A stretch of DNA of 64,000 nt from Candidatus Poribacteria bacterium (GTDB lineage Bacteria; Poribacteria; WGA-4E; PCPOR2b): contig OZ220744.1 in assembly GCA_965116925.1 (NCBI GenBank), positions 576,001 through 640,000 of the forward strand. Reading direction: 5' to 3'. Positions 50,160 to 61,696 of this stretch are shown one piece after another; within the stretch, counting starts at the first letter, position 1, and each line of letters opens with the position of its first letter. Below the pieces are notes generated by a model. That model did no database searches and was not told the DNA's origin. It was given only the letters and a program-made list of their open reading frames with translations. The translations under genes were made by a program, and so were the position numbers.

Positions 50160-52646
50160 CTAAACTCTCCAGAGATGGACGCATCCACCGATGAGGTAGA
50201 TCCCGACCGCCAGCAGAATCACAAGGTTAAAGCCGAACGCAATCGCAAGACAGGTCGCCAGAATCGCGCTTACTACAGACGCATAACCGTTGATGCCCCA
50301 CGCCCAAGCAATTAGATGCGGATGGTGTCTCTGCAACCAGTCTATACCCAACGGGAAGGGCATTCCCATGAAAAACGCTAAAGGTGCAATTAATCCAATA
50401 GATACGACAATCTTCAGGGCATCGGAGCTCGCGAGAAAGCGGTGGAAAATCGGCGGAAGCAGTTGTAAGTAAATAAGCGCGAGGACCGATAATATGCCGA
50501 TTGCAACGGGGATTGGATGTCCCTGAAGCCTCCCGATTGTTCTCAGCTTCAGCGAAAAAAGGCTGCCGAGACCCGCAAAAAGCAAGAACGCACAGAGCAC
50601 AACCGCAACCGCATACGTTGGGTTCGCAAGCAACAGAAGAAACTTCTGGATGAACGACATTTCGATGAACATGAATCCAACACCCAGACTCAGAAAATAG
50701 ATGAATACTCGCCAAGTCTCGGACACTCGGAACGGAGTGGTAGAACGCGGATTGGGTGCGGTGGAGGAAGTGGCTTCCCGCTTCAGGAAAAAGAGCGGTA
50801 TCAGAATCAAGACTAGCCCCGCCAGTACCGCTTGGATCAACGTTGCAATCAGGAGCAGATACCCCCATTCGATGAACGGGATAGCACTCCTCCCGACCGT
50901 CCGAACCATGTGAACCAGTGAATCAAAACGCAAAAATTGAAAGAAATATGGACGATTATCAGTTGTAGGGCGGATATTGAAGGGATACCCTTCGTAAAAT
51001 TGTTCCCGATCGTTGGATAAAATCGCTTGTGCGGCCCGAAAGTAGATCGGCTCCGTCAATTGGTTGTAGCGATTTGCTTCTACCTCCGACATTTGAGGGG
51101 AGTACGCCAGATCAAAAGAACGCTCACGGCAAAAATCCTGAATCGCCGCTCGATCTGCCGCGTCGAAAGCCCCCCTCTTTATTAGCAACGTGCCGGTCCG
51201 CCAGCCACGAATCATCGCCAACTGTTGAGCGGGAACCGCGCCATCATGCCGTTCCAGCGTCTCAACTGCCGTTGCAAATAACCGTATCATATCACGCGGC
51301 GGAGTTTTCAGCCAGCGCGTAATCGAAATAATGCCCCCAGGTGCCAGGTGTTGATACAGGTCTGTGAACGCCTCAACGGTGTAAAGATAGCTTTCGCTCA
51401 GGGCGTGCGTCCCTGCCGCAGATGCGCTCACAGAATCGAGCAGTGCAATCTGGATAAGATCGTACCGCTTTGTTGTTGCTCTCACAAATCCGCGCGCCTC
51501 TGCGGCGTGAACCTGCACCGGATAGGGTGAATCTAGCGCGTAGATGTGCCCGGCGAAATCTGTGTGTTCTTTCGCCACGAGTTCAAGTACTTGTGGGTTT
51601 AGCTCCACCGCATCGACCGATACCACACCGTGATACAGCGCGTTGAGGACATCCCCGCCACCACCCGCACCCAAGACCAGCACGCGAGGCGGCTCAAGTA
51701 GGTGATATGCCACCGCCGATGTTGTATCCCCAAGATAACCTAACTTTGATAGGTCACCTCTGAAATCGGTTATCGCTGTCATTCCATCGGCATCGGTGAA
51801 TAAGCCCAACTGTGGTTGTACCGGATGCTGTGTGTTTAGACTCAACCCCGGCACCGCACGGATTAATTCACTACGAACCACATGCAACACACCGAAGGGA
51901 CTATGCCGCTTATTCAAAATCTGTGCATCCGGGAAATTCAACACACTACTCAACCCTTTGTAGGGTGAAACCTTTATTGAGATAGGGTTGAACAATAGGT
52001 AGCCGATAAACGCAGCAGCCAGTCCAGTTATCGGGATAATTCGCCGCCACCGCCGCGTTTTCCAACTTTCCCAATTAGCGATCAGGACAGCACAAAATCC
52101 AACTGCTGAGATGAGCGTCAGGTTTTGTGCCGGGGGAATCAGGTACATCGTAACAATGATGCCCAAAGCCCCAATACCGGAACCAAAAAGATCGAAAAAA
52201 TAGAGCCGGTTGACATTTTCTGCAAATCGGAGCAACGCCAGGCCAATGCAGGCTGCACCAAAGAAAAACGGGAGCGATAGAATAAGATACAGGGCGAAAA
52301 TCGATAACACCTGACTCGGCTGCCAAACCAGCATCAGTGGATTAAACGGTACATATTGATGCAGCACAAAACACCCAACAACGCCGATTGAATAGAGCAA
52401 TCCACAAATCGTGTAAGCATTGTGAAAGCGTCGGTCTACTTTGTCGGATTTCCAACGATTCCCCATCAACCAACGTTGCGTAAGCGAAATCGCTGTCCCA
52501 CTCGCACCAAATCCAAGCAGTGCGAGGCTGATGATCATGTGCGCGAAATGATGCCATTGCGCTATTGAAAACAGGCGTACAAGCGTAATCTCATAAGCGA
52601 TGATTGAACCGGCTAGCAGGGCAACAGAGAGGAAATAGAGGTTCAT
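50160..52646 (-). CDS. Polytopic membrane protein with spermidine-synthase-like SAM domain
   Basis: Many TM helices, VLVLGAGGG, VELNP, E.YLYTVEAF, AWGING. Confidence 0.8.
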   Translation of the reverse strand: MNLYFLSVALLAGSIIAYEITLVRLFSIAQWHHFAHMIISLALLGFGASGTAISLTQRWLMGNRWKSDKVDRRFHNAYTICGLLYSIGVVGCFVLHQYVPFNPLMLVWQPSQVLSIFALYLILSLPFFFGAACIGLALLRFAENVNRLYFFDLFGSGIGALGIIVTMYLIPPAQNLTLISAVGFCAVLIANWESWKTRRWRRIIPITGLAAAFIGYLLFNPISIKVSPYKGLSSVLNFPDAQILNKRHSPFGVLHVVRSELIRAVPGLSLNTQHPVQPQLGLFTDADGMTAITDFRGDLSKLGYLGDTTSAVAYHLLEPPRVLVLGAGGGGDVLNALYHGVVSVDAVELNPQVLELVAKEHTDFAGHIYALDSPYPVQVHAAEARGFVRATTKRYDLIQIALLDSVSASAAGTHALSESYLYTVEAFTDLYQHLAPGGIISITRWLKTPPRDMIRLFATAVETLERHDGAVPAQQLAMIRGWRTGTLLIKRGAFDAADRAAIQDFCRERSFDLAYSPQMSEVEANRYNQLTEPIYFRAAQAILSNDREQFYEGYPFNIRPTTDNRPYFFQFLRFDSLVHMVRTVGRSAIPFIEWGYLLLIATLIQAVLAGLVLILIPLFFLKREATSSTAPNPRSTTPFRVSETWRVFIYFLSLGVGFMFIEMSFIQKFLLLLANPTYAVAVVLCAFLLFAGLGSLFSLKLRTIGRLQGHPIPVAIGILSVLALIYLQLLPPIFHRFLASSDALKIVVSIGLIAPLAFFMGMPFPLGIDWLQRHHPHLIAWAWGINGYASVVSAILATCLAIAFGFNLVILLAVGIYLIGGCVHLWRV

Positions 52647-52660
52647 CGTCAAATGGATTT

Positions 52661-53770
52661 CTACGGCATTTCTCGGAGAAGTTGTTTGGTTACGACCTCA
52701 AATCGCGCACGTGTCGCATGCTGTAGTTGGGGAAACCAGAGGGCCGGATCCGATGGCTCGCTTGTCCACTCTGCTGACCCGCTATACAATACATAGACAT
52801 CCCACGCGGTTTCGTTTAAGCGGAGCAGATCCTTCCAAAGGTCGCCAGTGGCTTTGTTGCTATCCCAATAATGCGTAAATCTTTCGTGAGTAAACTCATT
52901 AGCCCGTCTCTCTGCCGAGACCCGATTATCGCTATTAAGGATCGGTTGCCAGATCAGATAAGCCCGCAGCCGTTCATCCCCAACTCTTTCAAACAGTTTT
53001 ATTATTTCGGAGACCCCCCGACGACATTTCGGTCAGCCGGGAGAAAGCAGCGCAACTACGCGAACATTACCTGTATCTTCTTGGAAATGATGCATCAACT
53101 GATCTATATGCACAAGTTCCGTGACAGGCTGCCGATCACTCCTGAAAACATCTTTCTGCTTTTCGGCAGTCTCGCGCATCTGATCAATCAGGGGCTTACG
53201 TTCATCTCGGTCTAGCACACCGAGCAAGGTGTTTTGCCACGCCATCGGAATGAGGACCTCCATCTGTTGCATGAGCGTGAGGCCATCAAGGGTGCCCCAC
53301 CGTTCCGCAACGACTCCATCGGCGATTTGATAGATGTCGAATCCTGACACCGTTACCTGCTTGTCAGTTGGGTCAATCCCCATAAAACTATTTTTGTGAG
53401 TACCCTGCATAGTGGTACGAGTTACCACCTGATCTCCGTTGACAGTCATCTGCTCAACGGTGAAACGCAGATCGGGAAAGGCGAAACGTAACGCTCTTAC
53501 GGTCTGTTTGAAGCCTTCTATGCCAGATTTACCCCCTAGACCGATTGGGTTATGATCGATATATTCAGCGGCAATTAGCGTCTCTACTTGCTCCAGCTTT
53601 CCCTTGTTAAAGACCTCCTCGTAGATGCGAGAGATGGTCGCTCGGTCCGCTGCCGCTCCGGCGTCTTCTGCCTCCGCAATTGATACCTCAATCAATAGGC
53701 AAGCACCGATTAGGAGCACTCCCACTATCAAGAGATGGGGTAGTTTTGTTACTGTTAGCGATTGTTTCAT
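52661..53770 (-). CDS. Putative selenoprotein: signal peptide + SnoaL/ester cyclase + UxxC thioredoxin-like domain (369 aa)
   Basis: In-frame TGA 53033-35 in LLSPG-U-PKC, followed by 123 open codons to TAG 52661 and a SECIS-like hairpin. Confidence 0.75.
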
Positions 53771-53824
53771 ATTTTAACTCCTATCTATTTGGACTTCTGA
53801 TTGATTTTGTCATCAGGTTCTCCA

Positions 53825-53852
53825 ATTATACCAATTCGATTCGCAATGTCAA
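53825..53852 (-). promoter_or_regulatory. Consensus sigma70 promoter
   Basis: TTGACA-16-TATAAT with extended TG. Confidence 0.7.
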
Positions 53853-53892
53853 TGAGAAAATGTAGATTCGACCTTCTTTTTCTATGGGTCCG

Positions 53893-54200
53893 GTAGGTTG
53901 GGCTTTCTAGCCCGACTACATCAATGGACCAATGACTTTCACATTTCATCCATCACGTTTCACATTCTCCGCATACAGTCAATCCCACCCCGAAGTTCCG
54001 GGCACCGCTCCCGCTGTAGTTGCCCGCCTGTCCCGATTCATCGCGGATTTATCGGAACCTGCTCTCGCTTACTCACGGAACGGAGGCACGGACGATTTAT
54101 GCCGATTCATCGACAGCTTCGACAAGTCCCGATTTATCGGGATGCTCCCCGATACATCGGGGCAGGCTGGAACGGCATCGGGATCAGGCATCCTATCGAG
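53893..54200. repeat. Cluster of REP-like and CCCGAT.{3,5}TCGGG micro-palindromes
   Basis: Repeated CCCGATTTATCGGG-type hairpins; similar cluster at 56150-56590. Confidence 0.65.
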
Positions 54201-54458
54201 GGCGGCGAAATACCCGCAGGTCAACCTATCATACAAATTGGCACAACCTCTGGGCACCGATCAGAAAAAAAAGTCAAACCCCAGAGAAAGGTGCTTTCCT
54301 TCACTAAGGTGTAACCCTACCGCTGGATCTCCATCCTCGATGTTCGTTAAAGTAATACTAACACAGGCTATACCATAATGCAACTACTTTGTTTACAGTT
54401 GTGAAATTTTCCCGGCAAACATACCCAGATAACTGTGTGTGACATAAGAAGAGATGGC

Positions 54459-55640
54459 TCACCAATCGACAATGACACCCCGTGCTTCAAGAGCAGGAAT
54501 GTGTTGATTGCGTGAAATGTCGCTCAACTGATTCCCTTGGAGTTGTATCAAATCGCCTGCCCCGATCCCTATGTTATCTAGCAACGACTGAATATCTACA
54601 ATCTTGTTCCGCCTTAGACTGAGTCTCTCTAGCTGAACCAATCCCACAAGCGGGCTGAGATCCACAATCTGGTTGCTAGGGAGATACAAGGAATCTAGCT
54701 GAACCAACCCGGCAAGTGGGCTGAGATCCGAAATCTCGTTGCCCCCGAGACTCAGGCGCTGTAGTTGAACCAACCCGGCAAGCGGGCTGAGATCCGAAAT
54801 CTCGTTGTTAGAGAGAGACAGGGACGGTAGCTGAATCCACCCGGCAAGCGGGCTCAGGTCGGAAATCTCGTTGTTAGAGACATCCAGGAACGGTAGCTGA
54901 ACCAATCCCACAAGCGGGCTGAGATCGGAAATCTCGTTGTCTTCCAGAGCGAGTACCTCTAGCTGAACCAACCCTGCAAGCGGGCTGAGATCTGCAATCT
55001 GGTTGTCTTCCAGATCGAGTCTTTCTAGCTGAACCAACCCGGCAAGCGGGCTCAGGTCGGAAATCTCGTTGAGAGAAAGATCCAGATATAATAGGTTAAC
55101 CAACCCTGCAAGCGGGCTGAGGTCGGAAATCTCGTTGAGAGAAAGATCCAAATCCCGTAGGTTGACCAAACCGGCAAGCGGGCTGAGGTCGCTGATGCCG
55201 TTTCCCAGCAAATTTAACGTCCTCAGATTGGTGAATCTCGCAAGCGGGCTGAGGTCGCTGATGCCGTTTCCCAGCAAATTTAACGACTCTAACTTGACCA
55301 ACCCCGCCAACGCCGCGAGATGCTCGCTGGATACATTCATGACCTCTATTTCTAACACCACCAAGTTGACACACGCTGCTAATAAATCGACCTCATACTG
55401 TTCAATAAATGCGTATTGAGGCCCCGGGACCAGCCGGAGATGAGTTACCTTTGCCAATTCAGCCTTTGTGGCGTTCATGGGATTTTTCCCCAGTACCTTA
55501 CGCAATTCTATGTCAATTGACCTAGGATGGCCCTCACCTTCCTCTGAGTCGGGGCTCGGTGGATTCGCCGTGTCCTGACCACAGGCGACAAGCCACACCA
55601 CTGCCAAGCAGACCAAGAGTGTGATTCTGACGATTTTCAT
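54459..55640 (-). CDS. Internalin-like leucine-rich-repeat lipoprotein
   Basis: Lipobox LVAC; tandem 22-aa NEISDLSPLAGLVQL repeats (66-bp DNA repeats). Confidence 0.88.
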   Translation of the reverse strand: MKIVRITLLVCLAVVWLVACGQDTANPPSPDSEEGEGHPRSIDIELRKVLGKNPMNATKAELAKVTHLRLVPGPQYAFIEQYEVDLLAACVNLVVLEIEVMNVSSEHLAALAGLVKLESLNLLGNGISDLSPLARFTNLRTLNLLGNGISDLSPLAGLVNLRDLDLSLNEISDLSPLAGLVNLLYLDLSLNEISDLSPLAGLVQLERLDLEDNQIADLSPLAGLVQLEVLALEDNEISDLSPLVGLVQLPFLDVSNNEISDLSPLAGWIQLPSLSLSNNEISDLSPLAGLVQLQRLSLGGNEISDLSPLAGLVQLDSLYLPSNQIVDLSPLVGLVQLERLSLRRNKIVDIQSLLDNIGIGAGDLIQLQGNQLSDISRNQHIPALEARGVIVDW

Positions 55641-55827
55641 TGGACACCTTCCTATCGTACTAGATTCGAGAAGTTTTATCACAGAACGGGGTAACACTCC
55701 ACTAAAATCTGGAGTTATGACCTGACAAAAAAGAGGGGCTCTCGCCCCCGGTAGGTGCGGTTTCCAACCGCACCGCATCGTTATGACCTGACAAAAAGGG
55801 AATCCGTTGATTACCTTTATGTATCCT

Positions 55828-58567: not shown

Positions 58568-61500
58568 ATGACACCCCTTAATCTCAAACCAACCCATAAA
58601 CCTGTCAAAGCCTACTACGAATCCCTTGAACGTTTCGAGTCAATCGGTGTTTCCCACGAAACCGCCGTCCGCTCGGCGTTCCAAACCCTACTCGAATACT
58701 GTGGACGACAATTTGACTGGATCCTCGTACCTGAGCACCCAATGACTCCTCTGATAAGAGGGGCTAGGGGGGTTAAAAACAGGCGGATTGTCGTTGATGG
58801 TGCATTAATTGACACTTTCCAACTCCTCCACGGTTATTGGGAGGCGAAGGACATCCACGACGACCTACCGACCGAAGTGCTCCGCAAGTTTGAAACAGGC
58901 TACCCCCGCGACAACATCCTCTTCCAAACCCCACACCGCGCCATCCTCTGGCAGAACAATCAGCGGACACTTGATGCGGACCTGACCGACCCGACGCAAC
59001 TGATACATACCCTTGAAACTTTCTTCTCCCACCGTCCGCAAGAATACACCGAATGGGAGGAGGCGGTTGTACAGTTCAAAGACAGAGTGCCCGCGCTTGG
59101 GAACGGCTTGGCAGAACTAATCGAAAAGGAACGGGGAGCGAATCGGGAGTTTACCGCCGCCTTTGCCGCCTTCCATGAGAAATGTCGTCAATCGATCAAC
59201 CCCAACCTCTCCGAAGCCGCTGTCGAGGAGATGCTGATTCAGCACCTGTTGACCGAGCGAATCTTCCGAACCGTCTTTAGCAACTCCGAATTCACCCGCC
59301 GCAATGTTATCGCCCGCGAAATCGAAACCGTTATCACCGCGCTGATGTCTCACGCTTTCAGCCGCGAAGATTTTCTGCGTAGCCTTGATCCCTTTTACGT
59401 CGCAATCGAGCGCACCGCTGCGACCATCGACGACTTCTCCCAAAAACAGGGGTTTCTCAACACGGTCTATGAGCAGTTTTTTCAAGGCTTTTCGGTGGAG
59501 GTCGCCGATACGCACGGAGTGGTCTACACACCGCAACCGATTGTTGATTTCATGGTGCGAAGCGTTGAGGAGATTCTAGGGTTTGAATTCAATCGATCCC
59601 TCTCCGATTCCGGTGTTCACATCATTGACCCATTTGTGGGGACCGGCAATTTCATTGTGCGGACAATGCGCGAGATTCGCCCAATCGCACTTGAGGACAA
59701 GTATCAGTCCGAACTCCACTGCAATGAGGTGATGCTGCTGCCGTATTACATCGCGTCGATGAACATCGAGCATGAGTTTTACGAAGCGACAGGGGACTAT
59801 CGACCCTTTGACGGTATCTGCCTCGTTGATACGTTTGATCTGGCAGAAGACCGACAGTTGCCGCTGTTCGCCCCTGACAATACCCGCCGCGTTGAATCAC
59901 AGAAGGAAACCCCGATGTTTGTGGTCATCGGCAATCCACCGTATAACGTCGGTCAGGTCAACGAGAATGACAATAACAAGAATCGAGAATACCCAACGAT
60001 GGCTGCGCGGGTTGCGGATGCCTATGCGAAAGACTCGAAAGCGACACTCAAAAACGCCCTAGCGGACCCGTATGTGAAGGCGATTCGATGGGCATCAGAC
60101 CGGATTGGTGAGGAGGGCGTTGTTGCATTTGTGACGAATAACAGTTTTATCGACAGCGTGGCGTTTGATGGAATGCGGAAACATCTTGCGGACGATTTTG
60201 ATGTGATTTACATTCTGGACTTAGGTGGGAATGCACGGAAGGGATTGAAGGTCTCAGATGCCAATGTGTTCGGGATACGGGTTGGTGTGAGCATTAACCT
60301 ATTGGTGAAGACCGGACGGGCGATAAATCGCCCTACTACAAACGATGACAACTCTGTCCCTACCTGTATCTTTTACTATCGCACCAACAATCTATGGAAC
60401 AAAAAACAGAAGTTTGATTTTCTGAATGAACGTGGACATATCAGTAATATAGACTGGCAGCCCATTCGACCTGATGCACGCGACACATGGCTGACAGAAG
60501 GACTCCACGCCGAATTTGAAGACTTTATCCCAATGGGAACCAAGGAAGCTAAGGCGGTGAAGAATGAGGTAGTGGATGTGATTTTTAAGATTTATAGCCG
60601 CGGTATCGTAACCTCCCGCGATGCGTGGGCGTACAACTTCAACCGAAACACTCTCACTGAAAATATGAGTGGGATGATTAACGCCTACAATGAGCAGGTA
60701 TTCAAGTGGGAACATCGGGAGGATAGGGATGCAAACGTTGATGATTTTGTGGTTTATGATGACGGGCAAATCAGTTGGAGTCGTGACTTAAAATTAGACT
60801 TGAGACGAGGCAGAATCGCCGAATACACTGAAGGCAAGATGAGAAATTCGCTTTATCGTCCCTTCACAAAATCTAACCTGTTCCTTGATCGACTTATGAA
60901 CGAGGAAGTTTACGTTTTCCCATCTATCTTTCCTACTCCTGAGACAGAGGCGGAAAATCGGATGATTTGTGTCAGTGGGCGAGGACACGAGATTTTCAGA
61001 TGTCAGATTGCCAATCAAATCACCGATCTAAAATTTTCAAATTCGTCAAATGGTGGGACCCAATGCTTTCCCTTCTACACTTATGACGAAGACGGTACAA
61101 ACCGCCGGGAGAACATCACCGATTGGGCGTTGGCACGATTCCGGGCACATTACCGAGACGAGGCAATCACCAAGTGGGACATCTTCCATCACGTTTACGC
61201 GCTTCTGCACCATCCCATTTATCGGGAGCGGTATCAGGCAAATCTCAAGCGGGACCTGCCACGCCTGCTGTATACGTCCGATTTTTGGGCATTTGCCAAA
61301 GCGGGGCAACGGTTGGGAGAAATCCACATCGGCTATGAGGAAGTGGAGGAATATCCGCTACATTTCATCGAAAACCGTGAAGTGCCAATTGATTGGCGTG
61401 TGGAGAAGATGAAGCTATCCAAAGACAAAACGCAGCTGATATACAACGATTTCCTGACACTGGCGGGGATACCCGCAAAGGCGTTTGACTACCGGCTTGG

Positions 61501-61696
61501 GAATCGATCTGCATTGGAATGGGTGATCGACCAGTATCGCGTCAAGATAGACAAACGCAGCGGCATAGTCAACGACCCGAACCGAGCGGACGACCCGCGG
61601 TACATCGTCAAACTCATCGGGCAGGTGATTGCAGTCAGTTTGGAGACGGTTGAGATTGTAAAGAACTTACCGGAATTGGGGCTATCTTCTCATTAA
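58568..61696 (+). CDS. Single-chain restriction-modification enzyme (nuclease + N6-adenine MTase + Type ISP-like specificity domain)
   Basis: DG..GYWEAK, YTP, DPFVGTG, GNPPY, LYRPF, RSALEWVIDQY. Confidence 0.88.
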   Translation: MTPLNLKPTHKPVKAYYESLERFESIGVSHETAVRSAFQTLLEYCGRQFDWILVPEHPMTPLIRGARGVKNRRIVVDGALIDTFQLLHGYWEAKDIHDDLPTEVLRKFETGYPRDNILFQTPHRAILWQNNQRTLDADLTDPTQLIHTLETFFSHRPQEYTEWEEAVVQFKDRVPALGNGLAELIEKERGANREFTAAFAAFHEKCRQSINPNLSEAAVEEMLIQHLLTERIFRTVFSNSEFTRRNVIAREIETVITALMSHAFSREDFLRSLDPFYVAIERTAATIDDFSQKQGFLNTVYEQFFQGFSVEVADTHGVVYTPQPIVDFMVRSVEEILGFEFNRSLSDSGVHIIDPFVGTGNFIVRTMREIRPIALEDKYQSELHCNEVMLLPYYIASMNIEHEFYEATGDYRPFDGICLVDTFDLAEDRQLPLFAPDNTRRVESQKETPMFVVIGNPPYNVGQVNENDNNKNREYPTMAARVADAYAKDSKATLKNALADPYVKAIRWASDRIGEEGVVAFVTNNSFIDSVAFDGMRKHLADDFDVIYILDLGGNARKGLKVSDANVFGIRVGVSINLLVKTGRAINRPTTNDDNSVPTCIFYYRTNNLWNKKQKFDFLNERGHISNIDWQPIRPDARDTWLTEGLHAEFEDFIPMGTKEAKAVKNEVVDVIFKIYSRGIVTSRDAWAYNFNRNTLTENMSGMINAYNEQVFKWEHREDRDANVDDFVVYDDGQISWSRDLKLDLRRGRIAEYTEGKMRNSLYRPFTKSNLFLDRLMNEEVYVFPSIFPTPETEAENRMICVSGRGHEIFRCQIANQITDLKFSNSSNGGTQCFPFYTYDEDGTNRRENITDWALARFRAHYRDEAITKWDIFHHVYALLHHPIYRERYQANLKRDLPRLLYTSDFWAFAKAGQRLGEIHIGYEEVEEYPLHFIENREVPIDWRVEKMKLSKDKTQLIYNDFLTLAGIPAKAFDYRLGNRSALEWVIDQYRVKIDKRSGIVNDPNRADDPRYIVKLIGQVIAVSLETVEIVKNLPELGLSSH

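Follow-up and report, generated by a model that had tools for sequence, protein, structure and literature searches.

A probable selenoprotein in Candidatus Poribacteria that joins a SnoaL domain to an unnamed TlpA-like thioredoxin-fold domain

Does a TGA codon end a 245-residue 'ester cyclase' in a Candidatus Poribacteria bacterium, or is it read as selenocysteine (Sec) within a longer protein? The gene in question lies on the minus strand of a 64,000-nucleotide stretch of contig OZ220744.1 (assembly GCA_965116925.1, positions 576,001 to 640,000). We refer to this stretch, at its full length, as the window, and all coordinates are given in its numbering. An open reading frame (ORF) of 245 codons starts with ATG at 53770 (53770..53033, minus strand) and runs to ...VRVVALLSPG, which is followed by TGA (53035-53033). 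Past the TGA, the same frame stays open for 123 codons as PKCRRGVSEIIKLFERV... and ends with a TAG stop (52663-52661). The next minus-strand gene starts with ATG at 52646, 14 nt beyond the TAG. A preliminary description of this DNA, made from the letters alone, had noted the ORF cut at TGA and its open continuation, and reading the minus strand confirmed this layout. The first in-frame ATG, GTG or TTG after the TGA occurs only 82 codons on; the downstream domain is therefore not a separately started gene. We conclude that the locus (52661..53770) is most likely a single gene for a 369-residue, probably exported selenoprotein and not for a 245-residue 'ester cyclase', and we assign a probability of roughly 0.88 to selenoprotein identity and domain architecture. 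The complete gene would comprise 369 codons, with UGA-246 as Sec, and the TAG. The Sec codon (53033..53035) takes the first position of a U-P-K-C motif, and the codon of Cys249 (53024..53026) encodes the second residue of this UxxC, presumed to be the resolving one.

The TGA is kept in relatives. A six-frame search of 61 related genomes gave matches in 37; in 33 of these, the match extends into the C-terminal domain and, at full length, contains a single in-frame TGA. The 33 orthologues share 36-93% identity with the window protein (tblastn), and in every one of the 33 translations the motif is SP[G/N]-U-P-x-C and the frame remains open until a normal stop. As the preliminary description expected of a Sec codon, the relatives hold TGA and not TGC or TGT, and the downstream frame is not decayed (33/33 loci), a recurrence well beyond what chance would produce. 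When a profile of the C-terminal domain was run over 176 genomes of the phylum, the domain was found in 33, with TGA every time. Not counting the window's own genome, it is present in 21 of the 28 genomes of family f1 and in 11 of 11 of family f3, and it was found in none of the 112 genomes of family f2. The other four matched genomes are covered in the SnoaL part alone, without an internal stop. Secondary matches are likewise limited to the SnoaL part, and two of them (G030 and G022) have in-frame TAG codons. We take these SnoaL-only matches as paralogues.

Downstream of the TGA, third-position changes dominate. Differences per codon position 1/2/3 are 0.01/0.00/0.11 in comparison with orthologue L029, 0.08/0.08/0.30 with L038, and 0.13/0.11/0.35 with L043. 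Protein identity downstream of the TGA is similar to that upstream of it, with differences of -5 to +9 points (8 pairs). The frame beyond the TGA thus appears to evolve as coding sequence.

Homologues of the downstream domain have Cys at the position of the UGA. A HMMER search with residues 180-369 returned 1017 proteins at E values up to 0.001. From the best 150, 149 were aligned to the query, which gave 152 stretches (P0063, a truncated orthologue, was omitted). C..C stands in register with U..C in 110 of the 152 stretches, corresponding to 110 of the 121 which cover the motif; 26 do not reach the motif site, and 5 start immediately after it as 'MC...'. The 11 stretches with other residues have D..S (4), W..S (2), W..C (2), S..S (1), G.. 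(1), or V..V (1). The alignment of CxxC with U-P-K-C, proposed beforehand as a check on the Sec position, was therefore obtained in the large majority of the stretches that cover it. In alignment A1 (70 sequences), C202 and C205 are the sole invariant columns, and C205 is the column of Cys249. Five homologues (P0089, P0097, P0106, P0211, and P0091) in which D..S or S..S replaces C..C are presumably redox-inactive family members. In P0090, P0092, P0150, and P0207, Trp occupies the Sec/Cys column (SPTW...), and two of these proteins keep the second Cys. The codon may truly be TGG, or the gene caller may have read a TGA as Trp.

The UGA is followed by a hairpin that resembles a SECIS (selenocysteine insertion sequence) element. 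In passages of PMC1976440 and PMC9312934, the bacterial SECIS is described as a stem-loop directly 3' of the UGA. In the window gene, a SECIS-like hairpin (53007..53021, minus strand) begins 11 nt after the UGA and consists of a 6-bp stem, UCGGGG/CUCCGA, with the loop GGU. With the U of UGA counted as 1, UCGGGG occupies nt 15-20, the loop nt 21-23, and CUCCGA nt 24-29. The hairpin at nt 15-29 thus lies just 3' of the UGA and has a G in its small apical loop, in agreement with the hairpin and G-led loop of the preliminary description. In E. coli fdhF, the loop has G23-U24.

The hairpin is formed by codons 250-255 (R R G V S E), and at synonymous sites these hardly vary among the 33 orthologues: CGT is used in 32/32, CGG in 33/33, GGG in 33/33, GTC in 32/32, TCC in 33/33, and GAA in 32/33, with one GAG at E255 as the sole synonymous variant. 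The residues V239, A240, L241, S243, and P244 just upstream are invariant as well; they use 3-4 codons each, with a codon entropy of 1.5-1.8 bits. To judge from these counts, the hairpin is under RNA-level constraint, and the freeze of synonymous sites is a stronger argument for this than covariation.

The same domain also occurs with Sec in a second lineage, found in soil metagenomes. A metagenome contig search with protein P0193 gave 43 loci; the 37 with a match from residue 1 (L061-L093 and L100-L103) were examined, and 6 distant ones (L094-L099) were dropped. A TGA stands two codons before the annotated Met in 37 of 37, and the frame upstream of this Met reads ...GKVRLVALxSPT-U-PMC. Gene callers start the soil-lineage genes at the Met of U-P-M-C, and their architecture is unannotated. 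It begins with a signal peptide, continues with the same unnamed domain, here bearing SPT-U-PMC, and then has a DF-family domain (NF049942; 77.5 and 78.5 bits vs a cut-off of 70), which is in the Cys form and not in the Sec form. Like the window protein, the soil lineage has Sec at the same column of the same domain and a hairpin in the same register with one compensatory pair. Unlike the window protein, it lacks SnoaL and has the C-terminal DF-family domain with Cys. The register of the hairpin is kept though the peptide is RWGFSN and not RRGVSE, and pair 16-28 changes from C-G to U-A. In a joint alignment of 70 rows (45 distinct), 270 of 270 cells pair, with C-G at pair 16-28 in 21 distinct rows and U-A in 24. 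Shifting the partner columns lowers the pairing to 34-83%. In the unnamed TlpA-like family that this Sec-bearing domain represents, Sec occurs in at least two architectures.

The genome encodes the Sec machinery. Genes for selA (607 bits), selB (373 bits), selD (369 bits), and tRNA-Sec (76.6 bits) score above the curated cut-offs, and a search for selA, selB, selC, and selD, which had been suggested in advance, thus found all of them. The genes for selA, selB, and tRNA-Sec lie side by side, and ARAGORN reports a tRNA-SeC with the anticodon tca. In the phylum, selA occurs in 163 of 176 genomes. The genome's own selD (L001, G000:C1:6017131-6021051) has an in-frame TGA (...KTCG-U-AAKVSP...), i.e., its selenophosphate synthetase is itself a selenoprotein. 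The hairpin after this UGA has 7 bp (CAGUCCA/UGGACUG) and the loop GU; with one pair fewer, the loop becomes AGUU at nt 21-24, which is the same distance from the UGA as the loop of the window gene. Five of 8 neighbouring genes end with TGA as their ordinary stop, so there is no reassignment of the code.

Which protein would result from reading through the TGA? Residues 1 to about 35 (53666..53770) make up an N-terminal signal-like segment with a basic start, a LLIVGVLLIGACLLI core of 15 hydrophobic residues, and AEA before ED. A comparable segment precedes SnoaL in 32 of the 33 orthologues when the threshold for the mean Kyte-Doolittle value of a 15-mer is set to at least 1.8; the 33rd scores 1.79. 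From this hydrophobicity, export or membrane anchoring of the window protein is likely. The next domain is SnoaL/NTF2-like (residues 45-169, 53264..53638), is without Cys, and matches Pfam PF07366 with 127.3 bits vs a cut-off of 28.4. Foldseek matches of the SnoaL part are the TsrD, IdmH, and SnoaL cyclases with E values of 1e-12 to 1e-10 (TsrD 1.2e-12) and 21-32% identity. A linker (residues 170-214, 53129..53263) follows, which varies between the families and is acidic in the f3 orthologues. It has low model confidence, with a predicted local distance difference test (pLDDT) below 50 at model residues 131-142 and 161-169.

Residues 215-369 (52664..53128), which span the TGA, form an unnamed TlpA/DsbE-like thioredoxin-fold domain according to an AlphaFold2 (AF2) model and its alignment with VIA. 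The model of residues 45-369 has a pLDDT of 87.5 and shows two well-folded domains with the low-confidence linker. For the C-terminal domain alone (residues 215-369), AF2 gave a pLDDT of 96.8 and a predicted template modelling score (pTM) of 0.92. The TGA falls within the thioredoxin fold, with strand beta-1 (VRVVALL) before it and helix alpha-1 after it. The top matches in Foldseek and VIA-align are DsbE, CcmG, ResA, DsbF, and the C-terminal domain of DipZ, with Z values of 12-14.6, a root-mean-square deviation of 2.5-3.1 Å, and 121-135 of 155 residues aligned. GPx, Bcp, and Sco structures come next with Z of about 12. Both the model and the matches to DsbE/CcmG/ResA-type oxidoreductases bear out the 'thioredoxin-like' domain of the preliminary description.

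Sequence models do not name this domain. Neither Pfam nor NCBIfam has a match for it at E values up to 1, nor for 15 Cys homologues. With the whole protein, Pfam gives SnoaL alone, and NCBIfam gives weak SnoaL-type matches alone. A sequence-profile search of the PDB yielded marginal thioredoxin/glutaredoxin matches only (best E 0.024). The ESM Atlas, when queried with the Cys homologue P0076, returned only unnamed clusters; TlpA and AhpC clusters scored no higher than 0.86, which is a lead only.

In the mature protein, U246 and C249 are the sole Sec/Cys residues in 32 of the 33 orthologues (L060 has one extra Cys). As there is no other Cys in the mature protein, the redox pair must act on an external substrate.

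In comparison with known systems, the window protein is like TlpA/DsbE(CcmG)/ResA-type oxidoreductases in its predicted fold, in the redox motif at the N-terminus of helix alpha-1, and in the N-terminal export/anchor segment. It is unlike them in having Sec for the first Cys, Ala at the presumed cis-Pro position, and the SnoaL fusion. In addition, no Pfam/NCBIfam model of the group matches at E values up to 1, and the identity to solved members is 5-18%. The motif of CcmG and ResA is W-x-x-W-C-x-x-C, whereas that of the window domain is LSP-x-U/C-x-x-C. The N-terminal domain resembles SnoaL-like polyketide/ester cyclases (PF07366, NTF2-like superfamily) by its Pfam score and by the TsrD, IdmH, and SnoaL structures. 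Unlike these cyclases, the window protein carries a redox domain with Sec, is encoded outside any biosynthetic cluster, and is probably exported.

A 2026 review (PMC13188914) catalogues 119 prokaryotic selenoprotein families with domain ids. The thioredoxin-fold UxxC selenoproteins given in its Table 1 include Trx, Grx, a Prx-like thiol:disulfide oxidoreductase, and a thiol:disulfide interchange protein. Further UxxC families in this table are DsbA-like, DsbG-like, the Redoxin family, SaoT, the HUIPC-motif protein, and the thiol-disulfide isomerase-like group cd02966. Like the UxxC selenoproteins of Table 1, the window protein has Sec first in the UxxC of a thioredoxin-like fold, many Cys homologues, and a hairpin 3' of the UGA. 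It differs from the named families of that table in that no Pfam, TIGRFAM, or NF model matches the Sec-bearing domain and only SnoaL-type models match; this comparison covers the families with such models, not those with only a CDD id (cd02966, cd02970) or with none. There may be an overlap with the 2005 Sargasso 'thiol-disulfide isomerase-like' group (cd02966). The families of Haft and Tolstoy 2025 were compared solely via NCBIfam models. We rate the window protein as a thioredoxin-fold UxxC selenoprotein, which is a known kind, but it would be a new family and a new fusion.

The preliminary description had called the SnoaL-thioredoxin fusion one that it did not recognise as described. This fits the absence of a Pfam/NCBIfam domain model, and a full-text literature search found no paper that joins a selenoprotein with SnoaL. 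Neither 'SnoaL' nor 'cyclase' appears in the text of the review PMC13188914 or in the main text of BSepDB (PMC13326102) and deep-Sep (PMC12013277), the supplements of which could list the gene. The papers found for Poribacteria together with selenocysteine do not appear to deal with this gene. For selenocysteine combined with NTF2-like or cyclase, an E. coli study was the only selenocysteine-bearing one among the matches listed.

For a view of the partners of the domain, 64 representative homologues, mostly multi-domain ones, were scanned for other domains. HMA was found in 14, MerT in 6, and rhodanese in 1; SnoaL was found in 0 of the 64 Cys homologues. Some homologues bear the DF-family (seleno)protein domain NF049942, and stand-alone Cys homologues also have a hydrophobic N-terminal segment. 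We lean, by a small degree, towards regarding the window gene as the first recognised member of an undescribed extracytoplasmic TlpA-like family with the signature [LIV]x[LIV][LIV]SPx-U/C-xxC-xxG. This family would have two independent Sec architectures, SnoaL-linked in one phylum and DF-linked in soil, and Cys forms fused to HMA/MerT.

How might such a protein work? The UGA at codon 246 would be read as selenocysteine during translation, and the hairpin 11 nt downstream, with G first in its apical loop, would recruit SelB with Sec-tRNA(Sec). The 369-residue product would then be exported or anchored outside the cytoplasm. Its active site U246-P-K-C249 would lie at the start of helix alpha-1, where Sec246 could attack an external disulfide, a peroxide, or a soft metal, and Cys249 would resolve the adduct as a selenenylsulfide. 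A DsbD/CcdA-type pathway may re-reduce the selenenylsulfide; the genome has one DsbD/CcdA-family gene. The SnoaL cup may bind a hydrophobic ligand or a partner. Export, the redox role, and the reductant are what we infer here. A function as an extracytoplasmic selenol/thiol oxidoreductase is likely, and for a role of the disulfide-reductase type in particular, we see even odds.

The selenoprotein reading put forward in the preliminary description is supported by the TGA kept in relatives, the coding-like downstream frame, the Cys homologues, the hairpin constraint, and the Sec machinery. A number of points weigh against our interpretation. First, the hairpin is short (6 bp), and its folding energy in isolation is -6.6 kcal/mol. 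Five of its six stem pairs are invariant, so the evidence from covariation is thin, and the single compensatory pair probably represents one evolutionary event. Second, the minimum-energy fold of a 76-nt window has a different pairing, which uses the upstream S-P-G codons (z -2.16). As a conserved element, this alternative fold was rejected because the upstream codons vary at synonymous sites. Third, an Rfam scan of 52600-53800 at E values up to 10 found no SECIS family and only a chance snoRNA match. To our knowledge, Rfam has no general SECIS model for bacteria, and the scan therefore says little. Fourth, the mutual orientation of the two domains is uncertain (pTM 0.58), and it is hydrophobicity that speaks for export. 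Fifth, thioredoxin folds usually carry a cis-Pro at the position that precedes the nearly invariant W279-D280, and the window protein has Ala there; the f3 orthologues have Pro at this position. Sixth, no gene partner is conserved across the families in the 33 orthologous loci. Finally, the selenoprotein is predicted here from sequences and models.

Other readings of the locus were weighed as well. Two of them accept a real selenoprotein and differ in its chemistry. The Sec domain might be a GPx/Prx-like peroxidase for hydrophobic hydroperoxides delivered by the SnoaL cup. We consider this unlikely, for the best structural matches are of the DsbE/CcmG/ResA type and alignment A1 has no conserved Gln, even though the scores of GPx, Bcp, and tryparedoxin-peroxidase structures are close behind (GPX8 at rank 4 with a Foldseek E of 7e-6; Z about 12). 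The nearly invariant W-D stands where GPx has W-N, and NTF2-like cups bind hydrophobic ligands, both of which suit a peroxidase. Against it, UxxC with an invariant second Cys three residues on is typical of thiol-disulfide oxidoreductases and differs from the UxxT that Table 1 of PMC13188914 gives for GPx.

Just as improbable, in our estimate, is a selenoprotein whose UxxC binds soft metals (Hg, Cu) or keeps the cysteines of metallochaperones reduced. No HMA or MerT domain occurs in the window protein or in the 32 other orthologues. No metal gene was identified beside the gene in the loci inspected, where three flanking ORFs of L060 matched no family, and the SnoaL partner is absent from the 64 scanned Cys homologues. 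What keeps a role in metal handling in consideration is the known precedent of TlpA-type reductases that act on copper chaperones, together with the HMA (14/64) and MerT (6/64) domains that adjoin the same domain in scanned homologues. Moreover, HMA and MerT selenoproteins are on record (NCBIfam NF041115 and NF045683; Table 1 of PMC13188914).

Database records take the TGA as a stop. In a collection of 5.8 billion proteins, 74 of 74 close relatives have 237-252 amino acids and align solely upstream of the TGA. Four of the 74 are named, three as 'ester cyclase' and one as 'steroid delta-isomerase-like uncharacterized protein', and one is attributed to Candidatus Poribacteria. Short separate C-terminal ORFs are recorded too, e.g., P0081, a 'hypothetical protein' of 112 amino acids. 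Although these calls, the separate ORFs, and the common use of TGA as a stop in the genome suit a genuine stop that would leave a 245-residue SnoaL protein and, downstream, a decayed remnant or a separate gene, we regard this as highly improbable, given that the TGA sits within the thioredoxin fold, after strand beta-1 and before helix alpha-1, the frame beyond it is open and coding-like in 33/33 orthologues, an in-frame start is absent for 82 codons, and homologues have Cys at the TGA column.

With the TGA read as Sec, gene callers ought to read through it in the window gene. In the present annotation, a whole redox domain goes unseen in no fewer than 33 species and in many clusters from metagenomes. 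Reports of new bacterial selenoprotein families continue to appear regularly, and the window gene would add a family and an NTF2/SnoaL domain partner to the roughly 119 catalogued prokaryotic ones. If true, it would be the first NTF2/SnoaL-linked selenoprotein and would suggest that sponge-associated bacteria have a periplasmic step, in redox chemistry or metal handling, that depends on selenium. The HMA/MerT fusions of the Cys forms suggest a possible use of this unnamed periplasmic thioredoxin-like family. The hairpin would be a clean SECIS example: it is short, its synonymous sites are frozen, and the two lineages differ in it by a compensatory change.

The stretch is present in sponge-metagenome runs. 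In one study, two RNA libraries yielded contigs of about 3.6 kb that cover 52600-53786, which includes the whole gene, with 43 differences each. Among the differences listed, none falls at 53033-53035, and the next codon has a synonymous change. Such contigs do not prove transcription and are a weak hint of expression.

The gene neighbourhood varies between the loci. The minus-strand gene that begins 14 nt after the selenoprotein stop (50160-52646) encodes a polytopic membrane protein of 828 residues, in which a spermidine-synthase-like domain is weakly matched (PF01564, E 1e-5). Of the 33 orthologous loci, 21, all of family f1, have this gene linked to the selenoprotein gene. In an f3 locus, the flanking genes are unrelated ones on the opposite strand, for BacA and a glyoxalase-fold protein, and the neighbours in G021 are different again. 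We therefore dropped the membrane protein as a conserved operon partner.

On the other side, a gap of about 690 bp (53771-54458) separates the selenoprotein start from the next minus-strand gene and contains only short overlapping plus-strand ORFs of 138-148 amino acids. The product of this next gene (54459-55778) has 439 residues; its N-terminal part includes a hydrophobic segment (residues 46-66), and it contains many leucine-rich repeats of 22 residues in tandem (LRR_4, E 1.9e-45). Within 1.5 kb of the selenoprotein gene, none of the 32 other orthologous loci showed a match to it. Farther away, a plus-strand gene (58568-61696) encodes a Type ISP restriction-modification enzyme (Type_ISP_C, E 7e-100) with an N6 methylase domain.

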